Below are positions 3,015 through 63,456 of a stretch of 64,000 nucleotides of DNA, piece after piece. Origin of the DNA: Amphiscolops sp. MND2022 (taxonomy: Eukaryota). The stretch spans positions 59,026,001 through 59,090,000 of the forward strand of contig OZ076409.1 in the NCBI GenBank assembly GCA_964187785.1, in the 5' to 3' direction. Within the stretch, counting starts at the first letter, position 1; each line of letters opens with the position of its first letter. The position numbers were made by a program, and so were the translations under genes. The notes beneath the pieces are model-generated. The model was not told where the DNA came from. It ran no database searches and was given only the letters and a program-made list of their open reading frames with translations.

Positions 3015-4240
3015 CTATATTCTGATCCGGCCCAAAGAGCTGATTTGCTGCCCAGTCCCAGGGCGCGGGGTCATATGCTTTTTTAATCGCTCAAAATGGA
3101 CCTTTTGGCCTGTGTCCAACACAATATAAGCGTCCGTCTTACAGCACATGTGTCGATGACTTTGTGGGGTCCGTGCCAAGCGGGAAACAGTTTGCGGGTG
3201 CCATCGTTTGGTATGATATGGCACAACACACAAACTGCTTCGCGTACGGCTTGCATTTTCGCTTTCGGATGTTTATCAAACTCTTACAATTGCCGCAACT
3301 GTGCCTGATGTGTGTTTCTACGGACTTACTCGTGAACTTCCTGACAAGTAGGTGCTCAACGAACTCTTCCTTAGACTCTGCGCTGCGAACTCAGGGTATA
3401 AGAACAAAAACAAAATCGACTTTTCAGCCCCATGTTGGCATATTTGGTGCGAAAACCTTGTTGCATGGCGGGTCGAGGTGTAGGCACCCAAGACTCCATC
3501 TATGTGCTCGTCCCAATCTTGCATCCTGCGCGATACAAAGACTCGATGCATGGTGAGGAGTGTTCGACTTTGTCGTTCCACGAGTCCATTACTTCTTGTG
3601 TGCAGGTGTAAATGTGACCTTGGTGACTTGCGACGCCTCGAGTTCTTGAGCCATCTCTGCTGTAAAGTTGGTCGCCCGGTCACATTGCATCCGAGCCGGA
3701 GTGCCATGCCCGGCAAACCACTTTTTAGAATGATATTCGCCGTTGTCTGTGCGTCATATTCATCGTGGGAACACTGAACTGCTTCATCAAACTTCGTAAG
3801 TTGATCTATAATGACTAGTAGGCCTGTGTTTCTCGACACGGTTTTGCAAAGCTTCAGGTGGTCGAATTGCACTAGATCGTTGAAATTGCTGCTGTTGATG
3901 CTTTGTAGAGGAAAGCACGGGTTCCCTGCTGGGTGCTTGGTTTGCTGGCCGGTTAAGCATTGTTTAATATGATTCACCACACCGCGTTTGATGCCTGGCC
4001 AGGCGTGTCTCTCATGTATTCTCGCTAGCACTTTTCCAACGTCTGACGTCCGAACTCGTCGTGCCCTCTATACAAGATGTCACTTTGGTAGAGTTGTAAC
4101 CTGACGATCATGCACGGTCGCACGTGCAGTGCACTTTGTGGTGGGACATATTTGACGCATGGTATGTCATCTGGATTCAGGAAAAAGTTGGTCCTTCTTC
4201 TGATGATAGTAACGTTTCGCCAAGTCCTGCACATCATCTG
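3015..4240 (-). pseudogene. Gypsy integrase (zinc-binding region, catalytic core, C-terminal VHFERLK motif), disrupted
   Basis: ORF 3318-4031 has HAWPGIKRGVVNHIKQCLTGQQ, VQFDHL, LLVIIDQLTKF, SNGLVERQSRTL and DWDEHIDGVLGAY. ORF 3015-3233 has TGQKVHFERLKKH. Confidence 0.9.
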
Positions 4241-18936: not shown

Positions 18937-20117
18937 TTGTAAATACTTGCTAGGACAATGAGTCTTACTCATTATTCCCAAAATGAAATTTCAGCGTCGA
19001 TAAAGGCGAAACTGATTTCCAAATCCCATACCTGAAATGAAAATACATTCTCAAAAATTCGGGAAGAAATTAGAATCCCATGATCTGAGGAGTAAAGGTC
19101 CACCTCTTCCCTAAGGTCAAAGGCAGACCTTGAGTGCTTCTTTGTAAAACTTGTATTTGGCTCTTTCCAATTACTACCAAGAACTTGATCACTATTGGCC
19201 GTCCCAGTGCCGTTTTGGTCCAAAGGCAAACTCCCAATTTTGTTTTGTATTTCCGGGATAACCCTATTATTGATGCCTGAACTGATAGCCCTATTTATCT
19301 GCGTTTGCATTACCTTCATCTGTGAATCCATTTCCTGAGACAATCTAGCATTCATTTCACCGGATAGTACTTCAATAGACTCTGCAATTCCATATTGCCT
19401 AGTTGGGCCGTTTCTATTATCAATGTTTCTAATCTCGTTTTCTTGAGATGAATTTTCCTTGTTAGGTACGAACTTTGGGTCCTGATGCCTTTAGTCATTC
19501 GGGTATTTCGGACGAAACGTTATCAATTACCCGATGTGCTACGTAATGCCTTTCGGATTATGTTGTAAATACTTGCTAGGACAATGAGTCTTACTCATTA
19601 TTCCCAAAATGAAATTTCAGCGTCGATAAAGGCGAAACTGATTTCCCAATCCCATACCTGAAATGAAAATACATTCTCAAAAATTCGGGAAGAAATTAGA
19701 ATCCCATGATCTGAGGAGTAAGGTCCACCTTTTCCCTAAGGTCAAAGGCAGACCTTGAGTGCTTCTTTGTAAAACTTGTATTTGGCTCTTTCCAATTACT
19801 ACCAAGAACTTGATCACTATTGGCCGTCCCAGTGCCGTTTTGGTCCAAAGGCAAACTCCCAATTTTGTTTTGTATTTCCGGGATAACCCTATTATTGATG
19901 CCTGAACTGATAGCCCTATTTATCTGCGTTTGCATTACCCTCATCTGTGAATTCATTTCCTGAGACAATCTAGCATTCATTTCACCGGATAGTACTTCAA
20001 TAGACTCTGCAATTCCATATTGCCTAGTTGGGCCGTTTCTATTATCAATGTTTCTAATCTCGTTTTCTTGAGATGAATTTTCCTTGTTAGGTACGAACTT
20101 TGGGCCCTGATGCCTTT
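18937..20117 (+). repeat. ~555 bp tandem duplication (18937-19492 / 19563-20117) with a ~70 bp filler copied from ~16090-16161
   Basis: Both copies begin TTGTAAATACTTGCTAGGACAATG and end CTGATGCCTTT. The spacer matches TTTAGTCATTTGGGTATTTCGGACGAAACG...CGGATTAT near 16090. Confidence 0.9.
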
Positions 20118-20516
20118 CCGGTCAGTTTATGACACTGTCTCGTTCTTTCTCAATAGAATTTGAATTTCCTTCACTTAGCACAGTATCCATATTACTATAG
20201 TTGGATAGCATATCCGATTCTCTAAACCTCATTTTTTTAGCTTTCTATGTCCTAGTGAAAAGCATAAGTGAGAATACAGGTGGAAAACTTAATTGTTCCT
20301 GTATTGGTTCTTTCGAACGGGTTTGAACTATTCAAAGTTTGCAACAACAGTGTTAACAGCATCAGAGTTTGAATGATCATGAGTGACCATTCTTGGTTCT
20401 TAAACTTAATAGGGGATGACACTCAGAAAAAGGGTAATCATACTAAAAATAGCAACACTGCTAAAACTAGCAACACTTTTTCAAAATTAGAGTCACTGTT
20501 ATTCATATACGCGACA
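19710..20516 (-). mobile_element. Probable old solo-LTR relic with an internal ORF (MLFTRT*KAKK...MNARLSQEM...DLTP)
   Basis: Minus strand begins TGTCGC at 20516, like the LTRs at 39861 and 61935. A decayed ORF from ~20265 runs to CCT CAG A, compared with CAC A at the other LTR ends. No clean TSD was found. Confidence 0.5.
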
Positions 20517-23706: not shown

Positions 23707-23830
23707 TGACAGTTGCACCTCCCGCCCACGTGATCAATCAGAGACGGAGAGTGACTCGAATGGTGACTATCATCACCATCTTCTTTCTCATCCTCTGGTG
23801 TCCCGTTCACACCATCAACCTCTACTTCAG
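23707..23830 (+). CDS. Internal exon of a class A peptide GPCR: end of ICL3 and TM6 (galanin/allatostatin-A/kisspeptin-receptor-like)
   Basis: TTTTCCAG acceptor and AG|GTTAAT donor. Encodes TVAPPAHVINQRRRVTRMVTIITIFFLILWCPVHTINLYF(R), with the basic TM6 entry and an FxxxWxP motif. It ends in phase 2, which matches the exon at 46310. Confidence 0.88.
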
Positions 23831-34000: not shown

Positions 34001-34860
34001 CATTGAGTCTGGTTATTCATGAGGCTCTTGTTCTTTTGAGGAGTCAGCAAGAGCCATATTATATCAACACCTGCCATGACATGTTTCGCACTGGAAACGT
34101 TTCGATGACTTAGTTCAGGCAGCCGACCAAGGGTCCTTTTTTTCTTTGCCAAAATGTTTCAATCCATGCCAAGTCGGAAGTTTATGAGCTGCCTTGGTTT
34201 CACTCTCTTCCGTTAAGAAACTTGGTGTATAATTCTAAGGCTGCAGGCAACGGTTGAAACCCAATTCACAATAGACGGAGTTGAGAAAAATAGTTTTGGG
34301 ATCGGACTCAAAATACTCCAATGAACAGGTTGATTGAAGCACATTGTGACCAAATTTCCTTTTTACGTCTCGATAATTACATTTCCTGGGTTGTTACAGC
34401 AACGGGCTGTAATTGACGGTACAGAGTTTCCAATAAATCAACGTTGATGACGTCATTTTCAAAAAATGACTTTTTTCACGTAACCTTTGACATCAAGACA
34501 GTGCCAGCGCCACCGGAACGAACAGGCATTAGTTTGAGCTCATCTACTTCATTGCCAACGACTGCCTTTGCTAAAATGCATTACTGATCTTTTGTCAACC
34601 CTTTACGTTCAACTATTTTACAAGAAGTTCTGAGTTCCATGAGTGCAAGCGGAGTCACGCAAGGATTTCGCCTTTGCAAAAGTAGTTCAAGTGTGGACTT
34701 CGAATCCACTTGTTTGGAGAATTCGTTCAACATCAGTTTGAATGCATACCTTGCTTTTTGGCAAAATTTCAGTCGTTGCAGTTCTTTCGAGATCGATTTG
34801 TTTGATTCAATGATGGGTTTTGTGAGAATTTTGGTTGAAGCTTGACAAACGTGAAGTGAG

Positions 34861-35460
34861 AACTGAAACAACGATCTTTATAATTCTGTAACTGTCGACA
34901 CTTCCATTCAGAGTGGTTTCTTTTCGGATAAAAAACAAAGTTAGCTTTTGGCAACAACCATTTCTCAAATGATTGGTGCCTCAGTGAGAAACATGCAACA
35001 TAGATAAATATACGAGATGGTTTTTCTTTGCTGGCAAAGCAATTCACTTGCACTACACTGTAGTTTAGGATTGATCACAGTTACAGTCGAACATGCACTT
35101 GAACTACCAGTGGCAATTCCTTCAGCTTCTGGTTTTGTTCACGTAGCTACAGGAGATACGTTTCGACACTTCAGGGCTTTCCTGAGAAGCCTATTTTCTC
35201 AAGTATATTTTTCAGCAACGTGAATAGAGTATAGTCGTACCTCGAAAGCAGTCCAAACTGTTGGCGAGTACGCAAATACCTTTCCGTATTTATCAATCTT
35301 CCAATTGAGCTCTCACAACTCCCAGTGGTTTTTGAATTATACACTCAAGAGTCTTAAGTGCATCTGGGTTCATTTCCCCTCAGTAAGCACCCCAAAGCAT
35401 TTTGATATTTTAAGGAGTTCGTTTTTGAAAACAAGTTTTATTATTTAAAAAAAATTGAGT
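34861..35460 (+). repeat. Uninterrupted paralogue of the interior of the piggyBac-like element (contains both empty insertion sites)
   Basis: Matches 37872-38197 + 39862-40025 + 46014-46127. It has a single CCTGA at ~35181 and a single TACAC at 35340-35344. Confidence 0.9.
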
Positions 35461-38197
35461 CAAAAGACTCACAACAGCAAATTAAAATCCTACTTTAAGA
35501 AATAATCGAATATGAGCAATTTGATTGCGTGATCAAATAACGGAACCAATGTTGAGGAACAATTAGGAACCAACACGTACTTAGTCGATGTTAGAAGCAA
35601 AATTCACCAAAAACGAACACGCAGAATTTCAAATGATATATCTTCACAGGCTTGCCAAAGCTAATCAAAGCTTTTGATCTCGCGACTGCCATATACAGGT
35701 TTTAAATGGAGGATTCCTAGGCTACCATGTCATGAGCACTCACATAGGTTAGTCTCAAAGTTTTTCTCCATGAAAAGTTTAACTGTGTTGTTTTCGAAAG
35801 AAGACAGACACTTTTTGTATATTATTTTTTTCATCACTTTCATTTTGGGTATAATCAAGTCTTGGACTTCGCAATAGACTCCAGTCCTCGGAAACTTTTA
35901 GACATGTTGTAGTTCAGTTTTTAGTCTCTTAAGAAAGGCACCGACTAGAGTCACGGCTTTTCGTCAGTGTTTTTTTTCGATACACCTGAACTGTCCAAAA
36001 TAGTCCTACAAAAGTTCGTCAATTTTAGCAATGCTCGATATAACGTATACCGGATATAACGACACAACCCATACCGGATTTAACGCGGACCGGATATAAA
36101 TTATACCTAATTTAACGTTTTTTGTTATTTCGACGAAGTGACAGATTCCGTCAATTTCTATCAATTTTGTTCAACTTGCAGACAACTTTCTTAGATTATA
36201 CATAACATCTAAAACGTACGTAAAATCGGATAAAACGTTTTCAAAGTTCGGATATAACGTTTTCATTTCTCGTATAACGTTATCATTTTTTCCCCAAAAG
36301 TTCATATAATTTGCGTCGAATGTAAAGCTTTAGGGTCAGGTTGTCAGTACTATAAGACTTTTTGGATTTTCGAAAAATCTTCATTCAAGAAGTGATACTA
36401 AAACCACGTCCCCGGGGTAAACTTTTGTGCCTCGTTTCGGCTTTGTGAGACTTTTTTTCGGAAATTTTTTAAGGTCTGCAAAGGGCCCCCCTTCAATTTT
36501 TTGATCTTTTGCAACAGAATGGATGTTGAAAAATCCGAAAGGGTCGCTCCTTTCAGTGTTTTTCCTCATTTCTGAGACTTTTTTGAAAAATGTTTAATGT
36601 CTTCAAAGGGTCCCTCTTCAATTTTTTTGTGATATTTTGCATCACAATAGATGTTAAAAAAATCCGAAAGGGGCGCCAGTTCGGTCCAACTTTTGGGTTT
36701 TTCGGGTACTGTAGAAGAGAATACTTGACACTTTGAAGTCATTTTGCTCTTTTTGAGCCTTAAATATGGAAATATTACATACTTAACAGATGGAAATATG
36801 CCTTTTTTCAAGAATAATTAAAGTATGTTTTGTTACAAAACATCAGATTTTCCAATTTTTTGGTCTTTTTTCTACAAAAGATTCGCCGGCCGAATTACCC
36901 TATTCAGCGACGCTGTTTCCTTATTTGTTCGTTTCTTTTCGATAATGAAAAATTTGCCCAACAACACAGTTTGTATACACAAGTTTAATATTATAGAAAC
37001 TGGATTGAAGAAATCAGAAATAATTATGGAAGATTGCAGCTGAATCTGAAAACTGCAATGTGGGTCCGTGTACAGTCATAAGCGCCCAGTCAAGAACGCT
37101 ACACTACAAAGCGCCTCGCTAATTTTTGAGCTGGTTTCTAATTAAATCTAATTGAATGTGTTCAAACAAAATAATATTTCACCATTAATACCACGCTTGC
37201 CATTTTCACACCTAACAAATTCCAATTGAAATCGACTTAAATTGTGGGACAGTATACTGCAATTACCAACTATGAAAGGCAGACTGAATTTGCCAAAAAT
37301 TCATTCGAATCGATGAAATTCATACACTGCTAAAAACGAAAAGTTAGTTTCAATTGATTGAATACTTTCAGATTAACTAGGTTGTTCCATTTCCATAATT
37401 TTCATAATGCTTCCATATTTTCCAATCATTTTTTTGCAATAAGTTATGCCTGTGATAAAACCAATAAGTCCTTCTTTCGTGTTTTTGACGATGTGAGACT
37501 TCATGCATATAAGAACAGCCCCATGGGTCTAGCGATTCTAATCAAAGAATCAGTATAACAAAGTTAACTTTTCTTAACCCTAAATAGACCAGGAAGCACT
37601 GGCTTCGGACTTTGAGCCAAAACTTTGCACATCTCGTGTCTCTGACTGCATTTCATCACGTTTGAAAACATGCTAGGTCCACTTTGACACAATCTTGATA
37701 CCAGTGGGATAGAGTGGCCACAAACGAAAACTTGAAAAACGGAGAACCTTCGCTGAACTTTTTTCGATTTTTGGCCCCGTTTTCTTGCTTTCCGAGACAT
37801 CATGTCAATATTCCGTGAAAAGGCGTGCAATGCTATGTAATATCGTCTAAATATCTAATTCAAGAATTGAAGAACTGAAACAACGATCTTTATAATTCTG
37901 TAACTGTCGACACTTCCATTTAAAGTGGTTTCTTTTCGGATAAAAAACAAAGTTAGCTTTTGGCGACAACCATTTCTCAAATGATTGGTGCCTCAGTGAG
38001 AAACACGCAACAGAGATAAATATACGAGATGGTTTTTCTTTGCTGGCAAAGATATTCGCTTGCACTACACTGTATTTTAGGATTGATCACAGTTACAGTC
38101 GAACATGCACTTGAACTACCAGTGGTAATTCCTTCAGCTTCTGGTTTTGTTCACGTAGCTACAGGAGATACGTTTAGACACTTCAGGGCTTTCCTGA

Positions 38198-39861
38198 TGT
38201 GATGATCGGCCCTTTCCTGTCTGTTTTCATTTATGATGATGGTTTCGTCTAAAGTGTCTTCAGCAATCCCAAGAGGAGTGTACGGTTGTCTTAATTCACA
38301 CATTTCAGACGGATAGAACCGGTCATCCTGATTCTTATTTTTATCTGATGTTGAATTTGATGCGTGTTTGTTCCTGAGACCCTTATCTTTATAGTTAGAA
38401 GGACCAGGCTGATTGTTCTCGGCATCCTCTTCATTACAATGTGGGTTTGGTTTGTTCTAATCTCCTTAAGTATCTCTTCGAATTTGTTTTTCAGTTGCTC
38501 TTCAATCTGTGACATCTTGTCGTTATTCTGTTCTTCTAGGCTTTGTGAAATAACTTCTATCTCGTTGCTTAATTGAGAAGGTTCTGTTAGTTCGCTGCCT
38601 AAGTTCCTGTCAAGAATATTATTAACATTTTCAGAAACACCAACTAAAGTCGCGTTACCTTGAGTGAAGCTTGTTTCCGAAGTATTTTCGTCTCTGTCTG
38701 GTGATTGAGATTCTACTCTCCTTGATCGTCTATTTCTCCTGTTTCCCATGATGAAAACGATGTTAGGTGCAAAAATCTTTGAATTACAAAGATATTTTGG
38801 TGAAATGAAAATGTGGAAGTTATTTTACAGGGGAAGGAAACTGCGAAGTTTGTGGGTTATGAGTTGTTTGTGAAAATGAGTGACTGCTCTGAATGTGTGA
38901 TATTTTTTGAATGATGGTTAGAAGAATGGTTTTTTGATGATCCGCCTTCAACTGATCTTATTGGGTACTATTTTTAGTTACATGACTTTCAATTTTATGC
39001 AAATCATCATAACGTCGTGTTTCTAGGGTCAAATGTTAAAAATATAATATTGCGTCAGACTCCTGGAAGGTCTAAATATAGCACTGTGACTTACAACATC
39101 GTAGCACTGGAAATCCTGCAAATTATGCTGTTTTACATCCTATTGCAGTATATGCTGTCTCATGAAAACCTCATAATTCAGTATAATTTTATCAACAGAA
39201 ATAAGAATCTTTATACTGTTTTTAAGTTAAAACGTCATACTGTTTCTGTCAAATTCCCACATATGCTGTTCCTACATTGAAACGTCATACCGGGGTTTCT
39301 GCATATGCTGTATCCCATCTGAACCATCATACTGTTTCTGTCAGATTTCCGCATATGCTGTTTTTAACACATGTCATCATGCTGCATAATCAGTATCAAA
39401 TAAGCGTACGAATTCGTTATGCTGATTTTTAAGTGGATCATCGTGCTGTTTTTGATTGTTTTCCCCATGAATGAACTACAAATAAATAAATGTAGCAAAG
39501 ATATATAGGACCATTGGATCTAACTCCTTTCTACCATTTAAGATGATAAAACAAAGATTTAGCACTGTTTTGATAACTTTGACGTTACCTTTCCAGTTGT
39601 TTTTCAATTGATCAACACACCCTATGGGTGAAACAATAACAACAATAACGACGTTCAACAATCATCATTTTAGATGAAATGTACAACTAAAAGCAACATT
39701 ATATCAAACGAACAATAACAAGCATTGTTTAAGTTTAAAGTTTGAAATGTTTATCAAGTCTTCGTCCATATTTGGGTAGACAGCCTTCATGATGGGTAAG
39801 CAGCGTTGACTGCTTCATCGATGTTGCACTCCGGACATCTCGCATGGGTAAGCCGGCGACA
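38198..39861 (-). mobile_element. Solo LTR, 1664 bp, with 5 bp TSD CCTGA and an internal ORF
   Basis: Termini TGTCGC...ATCACA on the minus strand. CCTGA at 38193-38197 and 39862-39866. The empty site is visible at ~35181. Confidence 0.92.
38199..38749 (-). pseudogene. LTR-embedded ORF (MGNRRNRRSRR...), one frameshift, open up to the LTR end
   Basis: ORF 38291-38749 plus a shifted frame EDAENNQPGPS...HASN...ENRQERADHH. It aligns by eye over its whole length with the ORF at 62889. Confidence 0.85.
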
Positions 39862-40028
39862 CCTGAGAAGCCTATTTTCTCAAGTATATTTTTCAGCAAC
39901 GTGAATAGAGTATAGTCGTACCTCGAAAGCAGTCGAAACTGTTGTCGAGTACGCAAATACCTTTCCGTATTTATCAATCTTCCAATTGAGCTCTCACAAC
40001 TCCCAGTGGTTTTTGAATTATACACTAT

Positions 40029-40205
40029 TGTATTCTGCGAGATTATCTCAATTGAAAACGTTTTTAAAATAACAATGCTTTTTCCAGCTCAGAATGTATC
40101 ATAATGAGATCAGGTTTCAGATATAGAACTCAATGTTTGTTTGTAAATACGAACTAAAAATGGCAACAGTTGTTTATCAACAGTTCTCAAATAAGCTATT
40201 CTTCA
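40029..40205 (-). repeat. 3' LTR of element 2 (177 bp)
   Basis: TG...CA termini. Nine mismatches to 45837-46013 by manual count. Preceded on the minus strand by a PPT, AGAGGGGGAAA (40206-40216). Confidence 0.95.
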
Positions 40206-43200
40206 TTTCCCCCTCTGTAATTGGATGAGAGGTATCCAATTGATTACCGTTGCCGTCCAGGTTAATGCTGCGGTCGGATGCCGTCCACGTCTTGGTGCAG
40301 TATCCGGGTGTCCTTGGTTGGCGTTGTTGTTTTCCATTGGCTGGAACATTTGTGGTTGTGAGCAGATTACTGGTTGTCTTCGCTTTCCCGCTCCGGCATT
40401 TCTTCTGTTGTCTCCAGTAGTGGTGACAAGTTTGGACGTTTTGCGGTGTTTCCTGTAATCAGAATAGTTAACTGGATTTTTTAATCTAATGACTGGATTT
40501 GTTTTCGTTAGTCGTTTTGACCGGCGTAGGTTAGTTTCTTGTACGTTTTCTAAACCTTTATCAATTTCGGTGCTAGAGCTAAGGTTACTTGCTAATTCTA
40601 GATCTGAATCAATAGTATTGGATACCTTACCGTTTATGTCTTTAATGTGGAGGTATTGTCCTGACTGTTGAGTGTCATTGATCACCTGTTCTATGTCGGA
40701 TTCCGACATTTGTTCTGCGTTGATTGTGAGGGGCCTCATTGGTTTATTTTTGTTTGTTCCCGGTTGTTTCTCTGGTAATGCTGACTTTTCCCAGTTTCTT
40801 ATAAATCTGGGTTTTCCAAATGTTCCGCATTTTCGGTTGTTTGGTGTTTCTGGGCTGGTGTCCAATTGCTCGTCTTGTGATTGGGATGGCTCGAGAGTTG
40901 CTGGTGACTTGTCTTCTTTGCGAGCAAATCTTCCGTTCGGTCCTCTTGGTCCGGTTCCTCTATTGGAAGTATCCTGTTCAAATGGTGTAATTGGTTTACC
41001 GATTAGTTTACAGTGAGTAATTTTATTTTCGGCTGTAGTTACGGTATGGTTAGTTCCCTTCACTGCTGTTTCTAATTGATCGGAGTAGGGACTTCCGAAT
41101 TTTGATTTTGTGTTTTTCCGAAGAACTGAAACGGGTATTTACTAACCGTCTTGGTTGACTTTCTCTTTTGTTTCATAGGTAGATGGTCGGAACTACCGCC
41201 TTCTCCACTGAATGTATAAACCTGTAGGGTTTCTGATTTTGCTGAAACGGAATGGTTATTGGTTAATTTTTTGATTTCTTTTAATTTTAGCATATTACTC
41301 AGCTCTGTGTTCGGTTCTCTACCGAAGTGTAATTCGAATGCCGTTTTGCTCAGTCTAGAGTGTGGGGTTGTTCGCATTACTCCTAATGCTAGATCAAGCG
41401 CTTTTCCGAATGGTTCGCCCACTTTTATATTGGTTAGTAAGTTTTCTTTTAGTGTTCTCACCCCCCGTTCTACTAAACCGGTGGGAGTGTGTAAATACGG
41501 TGTCCCGTATATCAGCGAGAAATAATTCTTTTAACAGAATTCTCTGAACTAGTGACCCGTAAACGCTGATGCTTTATCGGTTCTGAACGTTTTGTATGCC
41601 GTTTAGTTGGATGTATTGTTGAAAAAAATTTACCGTCGTTTTTCCGTCCGTTGATTTGCATAGACTGGCTGCCGGCCGTTTACTAAACCGGTCCAAGGAG
41701 AGTAAAATGTAAAATCTACGGTTCTCTTCCGTGATTGGTCCAATGAAATCCAATTGAATTTCTTCGTTTGGTGCGCTTAATGGTGGTAAGCGATTTTGTT
41801 TCGTTTCAGGTATATTTGGTTCAAGATTCTTACCGGAAAGTTTGCACGGTATGCAGCTGTCGCATTTTCTTTGTATTGCTCCAGATAGTTTCGGCCACCA
41901 GAAGGGTTTTGCCGCCATTGTCATCTTGTTTATGGCAGGGTGGCCCTTGTGCAGTAGTGTGATGACGGTTGTTCGTAAATTTGTTGGGACGATAATTATT
42001 TCTTCGAAGAATACTAGTCCGTACCTTGTGGATAGCTTCCGTTTGTACTGGTTGTATTCTTCTGGGATGTTGTCATACTGTTTTCTTTCCAGACAAACGA
42101 GGGTTTTTAACAGTTTTGGATCGTTTTTTGTCTCCGTCTTTAATAATTGGAGGTCCGTGGCGAAATCGTTTTCGGTCTCTCTGACGGAATTTTCACGGTC
42201 CCAGTCATTTGGTTCTAGTGCTTGTATCCTCGGGGCGTGTCCCAGTTTAATGTATTGGACGCTTTTAACTCCGAGGTAGTTCGCCCAATTCATTGTGGGT
42301 ACCTCCAGCACCGACGGTGCCATTTCCGAGTCACTGGAGATCTCTCCTTCCTCCATCGGTGTCTCGTCCGATGTATAACTTGTTGTCGGACGTGCTTGGG
42401 ATGTGCCTTGATTATCGTGAGGGATAAATCCACCTTGGAAATTTCTGGTTTCTTTGAATTGCCAGTCCGGGAAGTAGTTGGTTTGATTTTGCCGGTTTCT
42501 AACCTCCACGGCAGGGCTCTCCAATCGTTTTATGATTTCGGGCAATTTTTTTCGATTATTTTCCTCTCTCCACGGAGGAATTTTGGCTCATGGTACTTCT
42601 TCCATTTGCCATTTGATAGTCGGTAAATTCCCTTCTTTACGATGTTTCGCCAGCGTTCAATTAAGTTGACTGTCCCCTGAGACGATTCGATTTTCTCGAG
42701 ATTGTCAATGATTTTGGCGTCCATTGTCATTAAAGTAACGTCACTGTTTGGAGTGCGAATAAGGCTATGAATGGCGTTTTGTTCACGCGTGTTGTCCGAT
42801 GACCGGTGTTTGTTTGCTTTTGTCAAGTTTGCTGTTCCGTTCGTTGATTGTGATTGGTTGAAATGGTTGCTAAGGCAACCAAAGTTTGAAACAAAACCGT
42901 AGTGCGGTGCTATGCTGTTAATGACATATTCTTTTTCGTATACGTCATCGTTTTGCGCCGGTGCGATTGGATTTCTACTCAAGTAATCGGTAAGCGCTAG
43001 ATGTTTTCCGGCGATATGGTTTACGTTCATTGTAAAATGTGCTAATCGGTCTAGCCAGCGCGTTAAGCGTGCTCTGTATATTTTGTTAGAGCGGTTGCGT
43101 TTTATTAGCTGTTCGAGAGCTTGGTGGTCCGTTAAAAGTTTGACGGGTTTTCCGTAGATGTAAAGACGGAAGTGTTCTAAACCCCAAATAACCGCTAAAA

Positions 43201-45790
43201 ATTCCAACTCGTTTATTGCATATTTTTTCTCTGTGTCCGATAGAAATCTGCTTGCAAATGCTATCGGTTTTAAATCCACATTATCTTGTTCTTGCCAGAG
43301 AATGGGCGCCTAATCCTTTTGTGCTGGCGTCTGTTGTTATGGTGTTCGGTCGAAGGGAGCTATAGTGAGCAAGGCACGGTATTTCCGTGATTTTGCGTTT
43401 TAATCGGTTAAATGCTTCGGAGTGTTCCGTTGTCCAATTCCATTTAATTTTCTTTTTTAACAACTCTCTCATTAAGTCCGTTTGCGCTGACAAAATTTCG
43501 ATGTATTTTGACAAATACTGAATTGCACCTAAGAAGAAATTAAGTTCTTTTTCGTTTTTTGGTTCTTTCAGTTCTTGTATTGCTTTCAACTTGTCTTGTA
43601 ACGGTCTGATACCGTTTTGGTCAATTTTGTGACACATTCTATGTCGGACTTGAAAAATTTTGATTTGTTTGCGCTAAGTCTGTAACCTGCGTCTTCTAGT
43701 TTAGTTAATACCTCGGTTTAGTTAACGTTTTTGTTGTTCCTTTGTCCTTTTTGTGACGATTTGTATGTCGTCTAACCACGCCGGGTGTTGGTTCTCCAGT
43801 GTTTGGTCAATCTTTTCTTGAAAAATGGTCGAAATGTTCGCCAGTCCATAAAATCCTTTTAGGTATCTATAGTATCCAGTGAAGTTGCCTCCAGTTATTG
43901 CGAATATACACAGGTCTTTTGCGTGTTTTGACAGTTGCATTTGACCGTATGCATAATCCAGATCCAGTTTCGATATCCAAATTAAGTCGGTTTCTCCGTC
44001 GGCTATTTCTCTTGATATTCGGGATATCAATTCCTCCATGTTCGGCATTTGTGCTTTTCTCTTCACGGTTATTTCGTTTAATTTCCGTGAGTGTAAAACG
44101 ATAATAATCGTTTTATTTTTCACAACGGTGAAAACTGCTGGGCTTGCGAAGCAATTTTTGTCTATGTTGGCTGCTCTTTCTACATGCCCTTTTTTTCAAC
44201 TTTTCTATTTCTTTACCAACTGCTGGTTGTAAATCTATCGGTACCGATCGGCCTTTCTGTTGTATCAGTTTTGCATCCGGTTTTAGCTGAATGTCTACCT
44301 CTATTCCCTTTACCGTTTTATTTTCGTGAAACAGTTTAGTAAAGTTTCTTTTCTGCTCTGTCACGTCTGGATTTTCTTGGATATTTTGTATCTTCAGGTT
44401 AGATTTTTCTGTATCCAGTTTGATTCCCAATTGATTCATCCAGTCCAGTCCAAGAAGTTGATTTGTCCTTTATGTTGTTATTAGTAGTTCCAGATTTTTA
44501 GTTTCTCCGTTAATTTCTACTTTTTTAATTTTAAAGTTAAAAGTTTAAAGTTTTAAAATACTTTAATTTTCTACATTTTTCCTTCGAACTTTATTTTGTT
44601 TATGTTGACATCCTTATACTCCGTGTGTAGGGGATGTATAGGTGTTGTATGGTTGAATAATTGTTTTGGTACCAGTGTGACCGGTGATCCACTATCAATT
44701 ATGAATTTGTTTGGTCGGTTATTGACCAATGCTGTGGTAGTGAAGAATGGTTGTCCGTCTTTGGTGTTCTGTTTTGTTGAATGGACCATTCTAGTGATAA
44801 AGTGTATTCTTTTTGTCGACCATTCGTCTTCTTCTGCACTGGAAGCGTCTGATTCCGGGTGGATGTGTTTTATTCTTCGGTCTATCTTTTGTTTAGTTCT
44901 GCACAATTTTGCGTGGTGACCGATCTTTCCGCAGTTTAAGCATTTCTTTGCTTTTGCCGGACAATCGTGAAGCTTTCTCCAGTTTGGTGCTCCGCATCTG
45001 ATACAGTCGATTTTTCTGAATTTATTTGGTTTATCTTTTTCCGGTTTTTGGTAGTTTCGTTTTCTATCCACGTGTTTTATTCTTGTTTCTTCTTCCGAAT
45101 CTCGTGATTCGTTCATTTTTTTGTACATCTATTCGTGGTTTGTGTCGGTTATAGCTTCCACCGACATGGAAGCTTCTCCTTTTTTGATTTTCTTTTTGAG
45201 ATCGTTGTCTCCAGTTGTTTTTCCGATGACTGAAAGGAAATTTGAGGCTAATAATTCTGCTGCTTTTATTTTTCGAATTCGCAGTTTTTTTCTATTTCCA
45301 GAATTCGTTTCCAGGTTTCGGCTGCCGATTATCCCGGTTCTTTTTTCAGGTTGAAGAAATCGGCCCTGCTATGATGTTTGTTTCGCTCAGGGACAAAATG
45401 TAGTCTGAACAGTGCGTATAGACGGTACAATGGTAAAGAAGTTGGTTCTCTTTCTCTTACCGTCTTCGTCATTTCTGTTAATGCTGACTGCCCGGTTGCC
45501 CAGATAAAGACGTCTTTTGTTTCCTTTTCTAGTTGGTCCCTGTATTGTGGCAACACTTCTTTGGAGTTTGTCATCTTTGATAAGTCCAACTCTCGAGTCA
45601 TCTTTATGTATTGGGTAAATTTTCTCCACCAGAGCTTTGCACTGGTGTGGTCATTTTTCTCCATGATTGGTATGGGTAACTTTTGGGTAGTCCATTCTGG
45701 GTCGTCCGTTCAAACGATCGTGTGGGGGTATTGTTTGGTAGCGAGCGGCTGCTCGTTCCTCCCATGGAGTTATTTGGTTCGTCTTCCATT
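40203..45790 (-). pseudogene. gag-pol of element 2, broken by frameshifts and stops
   Basis: ORF pieces 45329-45664, 44571-45128, 44113-44439, 43722-44123, 43281-43637, 42530-43279, 41574-42545, 41072-41461 and 40203-41063 lie in gag-PR-RT-RH-IN order. Confidence 0.93.
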
Positions 45791-45823
45791 GTAGCGAAGT
45801 TTTTTCTGATAGTTCAGAGTGTT

Positions 45824-45833
45824 GACTGCGCCA
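45824..45833 (-). promoter_or_regulatory. Primer-binding site TGGCGCAGTC (tRNA-Ser-type)
   Basis: Lies 3 nt inside the 5' LTR and is complementary to a ...GACTGCG-CCA tRNA-Ser 3' end. Confidence 0.8.
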
Positions 45834-45836
45834 TTT

Positions 45837-46013
45837 TGTATTCTGCGAGATTATCTCAATTGAAAACGTTTGTAAAATAACAATGCTTTTTCTAGCTCAG
45901 AATGTACCATAATGAGATCAGGCTTCAGATATAGCACTCAATGTTTGTTTGTAAATAGGAACTAAATATGGCAACAGTTGTTTTTCAACAGTTCTCAATT
46001 AAGCTATTCTTCA
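45837..46013 (-). repeat. 5' LTR of element 2 (177 bp)
   Basis: Direct repeat of 40029-40205, followed by TACAC. Confidence 0.95.
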
Positions 46014-46309
46014 TACACTCAAGAGTCTTAAGTGCATCTGGGTTCATTTCCCCTCAGTAAGCACCCCAAAACATTTTGATATTTTAAGGAGTTCGTTTTT
46101 GAAAACAAGTTTAATTATTAAAAAATTAACTAGGTTGTTCAATTTCCATAATTTTCATAACGCTCGAAATGGTACCAATATCCATTTAGGGTTAACTGTC
46201 CAAAATTTTCTTTTTGTAAAACCTGCTGACTGTTAACGTTGAGTAAGTCTAAAGGTTTTCAGTGTACTAACTGTAATCAGCGAAATTTGCATCATTTGTA
46301 TTTGTTCAG

Positions 46310-46460
46310 GTACCAGGATGCGTTCGGGACGTCGTCAGATGTCCTTACTCTCTCCCAGGCACTTTGCTTATTCTCAGCCAGGTGTCTCATCTTCATCAGC
46401 AGTGCAATCAACCCCATCATATACGCGTTCGCGGGCGAGAACTTCCGCAGCCACCTCAAG
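46310..46460 (+). CDS. Internal exon of the same class A GPCR: ECL3, TM7 (NPIIY) and helix 8
   Basis: Branch point TACTAAC at 46265-46271, TTTGTTCAG acceptor and AAG|GTATGT donor. Encodes YQDAFGTSSDVLTLSQALCLFSARCLIFISSAINPIIYAFAGENFRSHLK. Confidence 0.92.
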
Positions 46461-61934: not shown

Positions 61935-63456
61935 TGTCGCATCCATCAAGATGCGATGGTTCCGTGGTGCAGCTTTGAAGAGGAACAGATGATAGACTCA
62001 TTTCAACAAACTCTCTAAAACTCTGCTGAACCCGTTTTATATGATGTCTTAAAACTCAATGTTTTTTAGTCTCGAAAGTCATGTAAATATGATATTTATA
62101 ATATGGTTGTTGTGAATAGACCTTCATCATAGTGCTAACATACCTTCATTGCTTCACTGAGGACCCTTGTTTTAATAGTACAATGAGTTATCTCATTGTC
62201 TAATCATATATTCTAAAGGTCCTGATGCGTCTAAATTCGTAATCAGATAGTAATCTACTTCTTAGCAAGTACAATTATGCGGTACTATGCGGATTGAAGT
62301 GTGACGTACACTCGTCATTATGCGTTTTTACTAGTATCATTATGCGGCATTATACGTTTCAAGGTGCAACGAGTATGCGGCATTATGCGCTTTTCATAAA
62401 AACTTTATACGGCATCCTGCGGAACTAGTAGTGACGCATACTCGTTACTATGCGGTTCTCGCAGGACTTGTTAAATAAACCCAGCACGTGTTATAATGTT
62501 ATCTAGAAGCCATTTCAAATACAAAAGAAGGCCATCTTAAGAGATTCCCAGGGTTCATTAGTTTCTTTCCCCAATCATACTTTTATGATGTCATGTAGAT
62601 GTGCTATTTTTATAATATAACGTCATTGGACGTAATTCTATTTTTGTCCCGATTTCATACAATGACTCCCATAAAAAGGAGTGTCATGGTTTTTGGATTT
62701 TTGTTCTGAGTTTTCAATCAGAGAGATTCATTAAGATTCCAACCCTCATCAAGTGCAGTTAGTTTCTAAAACAACTGTAAAACTTTGATTTCGTCACTGT
62801 AAAACTTCATCTTTGCTCTTTTTTTTGGGATACAAGAATAATTCAAATTCTTTCCCAAAAGTTAGAAAACATTTTCACCTGAGATAACATGGGAAATAAA
62901 AGAAGCAGAAAGTCTAGAAGACTTGAGACACCGTCCCCAGACAGAGAAGTGGAGGTAACAGAAATAGAAACCCCTAAAACAGGTAATGAAGCTTTAATTG
63001 ATCTTAGTAATGTTGCCCAAGGAAATTTAGGTGAAAATAGCTCTGAAAACCAGTTAACCGAACCTAGTCAAATAAGCAAAGAGATGCAAGTTTGGACCCA
63101 AATCATGGAACAAAAGAACAAAGATAAGATTGAAATGATGAGAGAAGAAATGGAAAACAAACTTGAAGCGATTCTAAGGGAAATAAAGTCCAATAAAAGT
63201 GCATCTACAGTAACCAATCCTAGGTCGGATATAAACGAAATGCGAGAAAACCAACCTTCGGGATCCAAATTGAGTAAATCTATAGGAGTTCATGCATCTA
63301 ATAACGAAAACTCTGATTCCGAGAACGACGACTATCCTCTTAGAGCATCTAAAATGAAGGACTTGAAACATCCTGCTAAACCCTTCTTTGAAACTGAAAC
63401 AGACTTGGTCCAAATAACGCTTTCAAATGAAGGGTCTGAACAAGAGGATTATCACA
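61935..63456 (+). repeat. 5' LTR (1522 bp) of LTR element 3
   Basis: Starts TGTCGC..ATGCGA..TCCG..GTGCA and ends GATTATCACA, matching both termini of the TSD-defined solo LTR 38198-39861. Followed immediately by a PBS-like motif. Confidence 0.82.

Follow-up and report, generated by a model that had tools for sequence, protein, structure and literature searches.

The feature at 38198-39861 of the 64,000-nt window, the whole stretch of DNA analysed here, is very probably a solo LTR of a Ty3/gypsy family in which gag starts about 559 nt before the LTR 3′ end. The stop-less reading frame inside the LTR would then be the front third of Gag. The frame carries no stop codon because it comprises the first 186 codons of Gag, cut at the LTR end. 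A first-pass annotation of the same DNA had described it as a basic/coiled-coil leader. The basic tip and the helix are indeed present, but the leader is the N-terminal third of Gag, which that annotation overlooked. The locus itself is of little import, being a broken copy, and is probably decaying without function.

The solo LTR and the surrounding host locus

The solo LTR lies on the minus strand, a point absent from the first-pass annotation, and spans 1664 bp, relatives being mostly about 1790-1900 bp. It has TG…CA termini and the sequence TGTCGCC…GATCATCACA. The earlier description of a solo LTR bounded by a target-site duplication holds: CCTGA is found on both sides (38193-38197 and 39862-39866), no internal sequence lies between, and an empty paralogous copy of the insertion site at 34860-35345 carries a single CCTGA without the insert. 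This empty site belongs to a local two-copy duplication (97-99% identical), and a DNA search of the genome recovered the insertion target only twice. Of 878 candidates from a genome search, 40 were scored, giving at least 39 other LTR copies of 89-94% identity that reach the 3′ end. Moreover, the ends of the LTR, on which the first-pass reading could have failed, are those of the paired LTRs in full-length elements. The solo LTR was likely left by LTR-LTR recombination. A degenerate repeat region of variable length, at approximately 39160-39385 (minus strand), is some 176 nt shorter than in L002. The accessory ORF that the family carries in sense orientation on its 3′ side ends within the LTR 5′ end, where its last ~15 codons and stop occupy 39815-39861 (minus strand).

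The LTR-encoded N-terminal part of Gag occupies 38198-38749 (minus strand). The ATG at 38749 and the single frameshift that had been reported are both present, the latter as a shortfall of 7 nt at about 38435-38450, near codons 100-105, when compared with a natural relative. From the ATG to the LTR edge there are 552 nt (184 codons; 186 in most relatives), ending in the codons GAT CAT CAC A. Owing to the 7-nt deletion, the frame readable from the ATG (38291-38749, minus strand) terminates within the LTR, after 152 aa, at a stop at 38293-38291. Translation begun at the ATG thus falls short of the edge, and the claim that the LTR codes up to its last base is correct only for the Gag frame past the break (38151-38456, minus strand), which continues beyond the LTR for 15 codons of flank before it meets a stop.

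The insertion sits antisense within a 22.5-kb intron (23831-46309) packed with mobile elements. The donor opening this intron belongs to a plus-strand host exon at 23707-23830 that likely encodes helix 6 of a class A GPCR (7tm_1 E=3.5e-4, below cut-off). The next host exon (46310-46460, plus strand) is phase-compatible with it and likely encodes helix 7; it gave no 7tm_1 match and contains NPIIY, which we take to be the NPxxY motif of that helix. The gene around the solo LTR is thus likely a class A GPCR. Being antisense in the intron, the solo LTR has no way of contributing to the coding strand of that gene, which rules out a read-through fusion for this copy. The immediate flank was considered as a host exon and rejected, as it has no Pfam match and no further copies; by eye, its motifs presumably mark a decayed retroelement, an assignment that Pfam does not support.

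Two further features of the window were noted. Another gypsy-type element, decayed and bounded by LTRs of ~179 bp, lies at about 40028-46014 (minus strand), inserted 165 nt from the solo LTR and within the same duplicated segment. A tandem ~625-bp duplication at 18937-20121 (minus strand) has an open frame of 140-170 aa per copy with a helical stretch resembling the Gag leader; the one copy scanned had no Pfam match.

Full-length elements and the anatomy of the leader

Full-length elements of the family were recovered elsewhere in the genome. Six of nine element stretches could be parsed automatically (two of the six being mutual duplicates, while the other three stretches escaped the pattern), giving lengths of 15,962-17,116 bp, LTR pairs 96.1-98.6% identical and matching 5-bp target-site duplications. 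The primer site TGGTGACAGG follows the LTR at 13/30 loci, and most of the others have fixed internal sequence upstream. This site is complementary to the 3′ end of tRNA-Leu(CAG) over 11 nt plus CCA (2/5 loci called as tRNA). In full elements the LTR ATG opens a continuous 556-aa ORF that passes through the junction (…CAC A|TG GTG ACA GGA) and the primer site. The encoded protein contains zf-CCHC above cut-off and a Ty3_capsid match below the Pfam cut-off (E=0.0066), and its Atlas neighbours are CCHC/Retrotrans_gag clusters; its structural model (pLDDT 46) returned no fold match at E<=0.001. Downstream of Gag, pol has the gypsy order PR-RT-RH-IN (element L037), and the nearest solved RTs to that of the family are foamy-type and Ty3. 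The sequence before the 3′ LTR is conserved but mixed, not a clean purine run, and neither AATAAA nor ATTAAA is common to 15 or more of 61 LTRs. The same layout is seen in the window in the 5′ LTR of a diverged element at 61935-63456 (plus strand; ATG at 62889), with Gag again running through the primer site.

This arrangement is widespread. Among the best 120 of 2861 Gag homologues, the junction D-x-H-M-V-T is kept in 111 and an MG-N/S/K-basic start in 99, and the distance from start to junction is 174-193 residues (n=93; median 190). Exact patterns searched genome-wide returned 1517 starts and 872 in-frame junctions, with reversed controls giving 0. A profile of the leader had no PDB match; it matched 534 representatives that carry neither names nor taxonomy, and only one of the best 150 (556 aa) exceeds 286 aa.

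Transcription would start inside the 5′ LTR upstream of the ATG, placing the leader in R/U5. Each round of reverse transcription would then copy the leader into both LTRs, and it is for this reason that 3′ and solo LTRs would all inherit it. Selection would act solely through the 5′ copy of active elements. A AATTCAAA-type block at 38778-38785 (minus strand), 30-50 nt upstream of the ATG and common to subfamilies, is a candidate initiator and may mark the transcription start site. A 230-nt ATG-free zone upstream of the start was also considered and set aside as not significant (about 2 expected).

The leader is predicted to be a matrix-like module made up of a possibly myristoylated Met-Gly with a basic tip, an amphipathic helix of ~50 residues and a cis-element at codons 30-38. 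The tip reads Met-Gly-Asn followed by an Arg/Lys cluster, Gly2 and Asn3 being invariant in alignment A5. A strict fit to MGxxxS/T, as that motif is used in 10.1101/2025.03.14.642691, is found in 36/120 Gag homologues; most of the others, and the 38198-39861 copy, have Asn at position 6. AlphaFold2 predicts a single confident helix at residues 58-110 (pLDDT 76-91), the rest of the leader being of low confidence. Its hydrophobic period is 3.67 (11/3), as against 3.5 for a heptad coiled coil; therefore the coiled coil proposed earlier is plausible but unproven.

The element at codons 30-38 (38639-38660, minus strand) is conserved at the nucleotide level as AGGTAAT-NNN-ACT… (AGGTAAC in this copy), with a left half that looks like a 5′ splice site. 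Of 40 sequences retrieved, 23 are open and 19 of these serve as subfamily representatives, in which codons 32-33 read GGT in 19/19 and AAT in 18/18, and codon 35 is ACT in 17/19. Other conserved leader residues, unlike those of codons 30-38, use several codons, and judged by this codon usage the motif is a cis-element. AG|GTAAT is fixed at synonymous sites, but the conservation extends past what a donor would cover. A hairpin at the motif has an energy of about 0 and no covariation. In retroviruses, a donor can suppress polyadenylation in the 5′ LTR; by analogy, one idea is that the donor-like site would do so here. The possibility that the leader is spliced to the 3′ sense ORF was rejected, since the latter carries a conserved Met of its own and lacks a conserved phase-1 acceptor.

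Selection on the leader and its possible roles

Selection was assessed in a set of 61 LTRs (27 5′, 25 3′, 8 solo and 1 truncated), which includes three duplicate pairs and one solo LTR whose target-site duplication has 1 mismatch. The ATG is kept in 61/61. An open frame extends as far as the edge in 12/27 5′ LTRs, 15/25 3′ LTRs and 4/8 solo LTRs, that is, in 19/33 of the solo and 3′ LTRs together. A check of ORF intactness on solo LTRs had been proposed in the first-pass annotation, and these counts bear out its picture of solo and 3′ LTRs as units with an ATG, a basic leader and no stop; the gene-seeding role that it attached to them is not supported.

For differences between the two LTRs of one element, which arose after insertion, pN/pS is 0.85 (18 elements). 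Between elements, at codons identical in both LTRs of each, it is 0.18, in comparisons that are not independent of one another. In 57 copies (the 61 LTRs minus three duplicates and the truncated one), variants present in at least 4 copies comprise 40 synonymous and 25 nonsynonymous changes and 0 stops, and singletons comprise 48, 178 and 7, respectively (Fisher p=3e-9). The singleton ratio is 0.58 in solo, 0.80 in 3′ and 1.29 in 5′ LTRs; the solo value (10 synonymous, 23 nonsynonymous, 2 stops; 33 changes in 8 copies) represents a slight nonsynonymous deficit to which no significance test was applied. The leader is maintained in transposing lineages and decays at a near-neutral rate once inserted.

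Beyond the edge of 33 host-facing LTRs, the Gag frame runs on for 1-52 codons, with a mean of 14.9 versus 14.0 expected (p=0.76), and the other two frames run on for 13.3 and 20.6 codons. One in-frame chimera was found, at G000:C4:36837660-36838790 (L122), in which a 3′ LTR leader continues into 191 codons of a glycoprotein ORF; the tail matches a Monjiviricetes-type fusion glycoprotein (E=4e-13). It originated when a full element inserted into the glycoprotein ORF; placed against uninterrupted copies, the two flanks meet with 5 nt of overlap. The glycoprotein ORF is high-copy, with matches at 108 other scored places. This 3′ LTR is absent from the set of 33 because its LTR end is mutated. At the DNA/ORF level, no fusion to host coding sequence was found in the 33 host-facing LTRs or in 120 listed leader-containing longer proteins, where the next longest non-Gag tail is 98 aa, and a scan of 13 other long matches gave no convincing Pfam family. 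DNA-level fusion can therefore happen, the sole case being a single truncated join of two mobile elements. The ability to fuse to flanking DNA that had been ascribed to these LTRs is thus real in one natural instance, but the partner is the ORF of another mobile element.

Four other readings of the leader were weighed, all of them improbable. The one that survives best, itself speculative and unlikely, is that each of the ~1500 LTRs is a first exon consisting of the initiator, the ATG, a 30-residue Met-Gly/polybasic membrane-or-nuclear tag, the conserved donor and the stop-less helical leader. On this view, neighbouring genes could acquire a targeting tag from solo and 3′ copies, including those with a frameshift further along, such as the copy in the window, and the C4 chimera would be a fossil of this route.

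Somewhat less probable still is the proposal of the first-pass annotation, in which solo and 3′ LTRs serve as portable cassettes of promoter, ATG and leader and give rise to chimeric or de novo host genes; such fusions would form by read-through or by use of the codon-31 donor-like site. The proposal gains from the open frames of more than half of these LTRs, from the roughly 1500 starts genome-wide, from the in-frame glycoprotein codons behind the C4 3′ LTR and from the AG|GTAAT site, which lies upstream of the frameshift in the 38198-39861 copy; mammalian MT LTRs do seed genes, according to PMC5538554. Against this stand the near-neutral decay after insertion and the chance length of the run-on tails, while no conserved phase-compatible acceptor was found for the donor-like site. 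Moreover, the only long fusion is truncated and leads into a high-copy mobile-element ORF, with no other non-Gag tail above 98 aa among the 120 proteins listed, and the copy in the window is both frameshifted and antisense to its host gene. Taken together, a gene-seeding role of the family's LTRs is possible but unsupported.

We regard as very improbable that leader-only peptides from 3′ and solo LTRs act like Ty1 p22, as truncated-Gag restriction factors that limit copy number. Ty1 p22 is a C-terminal part of Gag, not its leader, and the values for 3′ LTR singletons (0.80) and LTR pairs (0.85) also speak against such a function. The confidently predicted helix with its 11/3 periodicity could poison assembly, half of the solo LTRs are open with their slight nonsynonymous deficit, and Ty1 provides a precedent for the principle (PMC4551931). 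Least probable of all is that the frame is open mainly as a by-product of RNA or DNA signals and that Gag truly starts at the junction ATG: nearly all homologues do have an ATG where the LTR meets the primer site and a nucleotide-level motif does lie inside the leader, but outside codons 30-38 the leader conserves amino acids (M1-G2-N3, the Arg cluster, the E-P-S-Q block and the hydrophobic residues of the helix) with its synonymous sites left free, and no stop is common to at least 4 copies.

Comparison with known elements

The Ty1 LTR ends at the primer-binding site. For Ty1 of Saccharomyces cerevisiae, PMC5454406 gives a 53-nt 5′ UTR and a primer-binding site at RNA nt 95-104, positions from which, by arithmetic, about 14 GAG codons precede the site. 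GAG thus starts upstream of the primer-binding site and reads through it, as in the present family. However, Ty1 has ~14 such codons versus 186 here, copia rather than gypsy domain order, tRNA-iMet rather than tRNA-Leu as primer, and a yeast host, the present genome being large, eukaryotic and likely that of an animal.

In Candida albicans, the LTR of the Ty5-related element Tca5 measures 685 bp and its first ATG comes after 382 bp, which PMC4139406 calls an unusually deep inset while stating that the in vivo use of that ATG is unclear. Tca5 likewise has ~100 codons in its LTR; it differs, as far as that source goes, in its single ORF, low copy number and few solo LTRs, whereas here the inset is nearly twice as deep, under purifying selection and spread over many subfamilies.

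According to PMC5538554, mammalian solo LTRs of the MT, ORR1 and MT2 groups (ERVL-MaLR) may carry a promoter, an AUG and a splice donor, and they can give rise to genes, D6Ertd527e among them. They share the AUG inside the LTR with the present family. There, gene founding is shown by transcriptomes; here, the LTRs are known from DNA alone, fusion to a host gene was not found, and a long portion of Gag makes up the coding stretch.

With Ty3/gypsy (Metaviridae-type) elements the family shares TG…CA LTRs, a 5-bp target-site duplication, a tRNA primer site, gag with CCHC and the PR-RT-RH-IN order. It departs from them in a Gag that starts 559 nt inside the LTR, in antisense ORFs, in a sense ORF ending in the 3′ LTR and in the lack of a clear polypurine tract. 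We found no animal gypsy element with an LTR-encoded Gag part this long in the literature, a search whose coverage largely left out subscription papers and Repbase and which is hence weak evidence of absence. Gag starting within the LTR is already known from Ty1 and Tca5, and the 186-codon gypsy case is a new, extreme variant of that layout.

The family extends the yeast-type layout to 186 selected codons in a gypsy clade, at no fewer than 872 junctions. With such a layout, the first product of reverse transcription should reach about 600 nt or more and signals should overlap coding sequence. Splicing or 5′-LTR polyadenylation may be controlled through the fixed motif at codons 30-38, a concrete candidate for that role. 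Moreover, ORFs of ~190 aa predicted at these LTRs should be annotated as Gag fragments, not as orphan genes.

Lastly, several features of the full elements were observed in passing. Antisense ORFs between pol and the 3′ LTR (L039:8670-9887 and L040:1198-3228, both minus strand; also L107/L108) are conserved in both families and contain a Cys/His finger-like segment; one such ORF had no significant PDB or Pfam match and no Atlas match, and the model of its C-terminal part has a mean pLDDT of 39. The sense accessory ORF (L040:4569-5537, plus strand) encodes ~315 aa with its own conserved Met and an acidic DISSxS motif; it extends ~15 codons into the 3′ LTR, which thus has coding sequence at each of its ends. 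At the gag/pol overlap (L039 near 3540-3570), a slippery site for -1 frameshifting, T TTA AAC, can be deduced from the proteins, whose overlapping translations read SKDLN and EGFKL. The tRNA-Leu-like 3′ end pattern has 890 matches genome-wide, most of those listed falling in a large tandem array at G000:C8:35.58-35.64 Mb, a possible primer source. Proteins P0236, P0253, P0259 and similar ones contain tandem repeats of the peptide spanning the LTR-end/primer-site junction, suggesting short duplications there. At G000:C7:54.767 Mb (L041), an LTR is preceded by 3′-internal sequence and followed by the primer site, and is likely shared between tandem elements.
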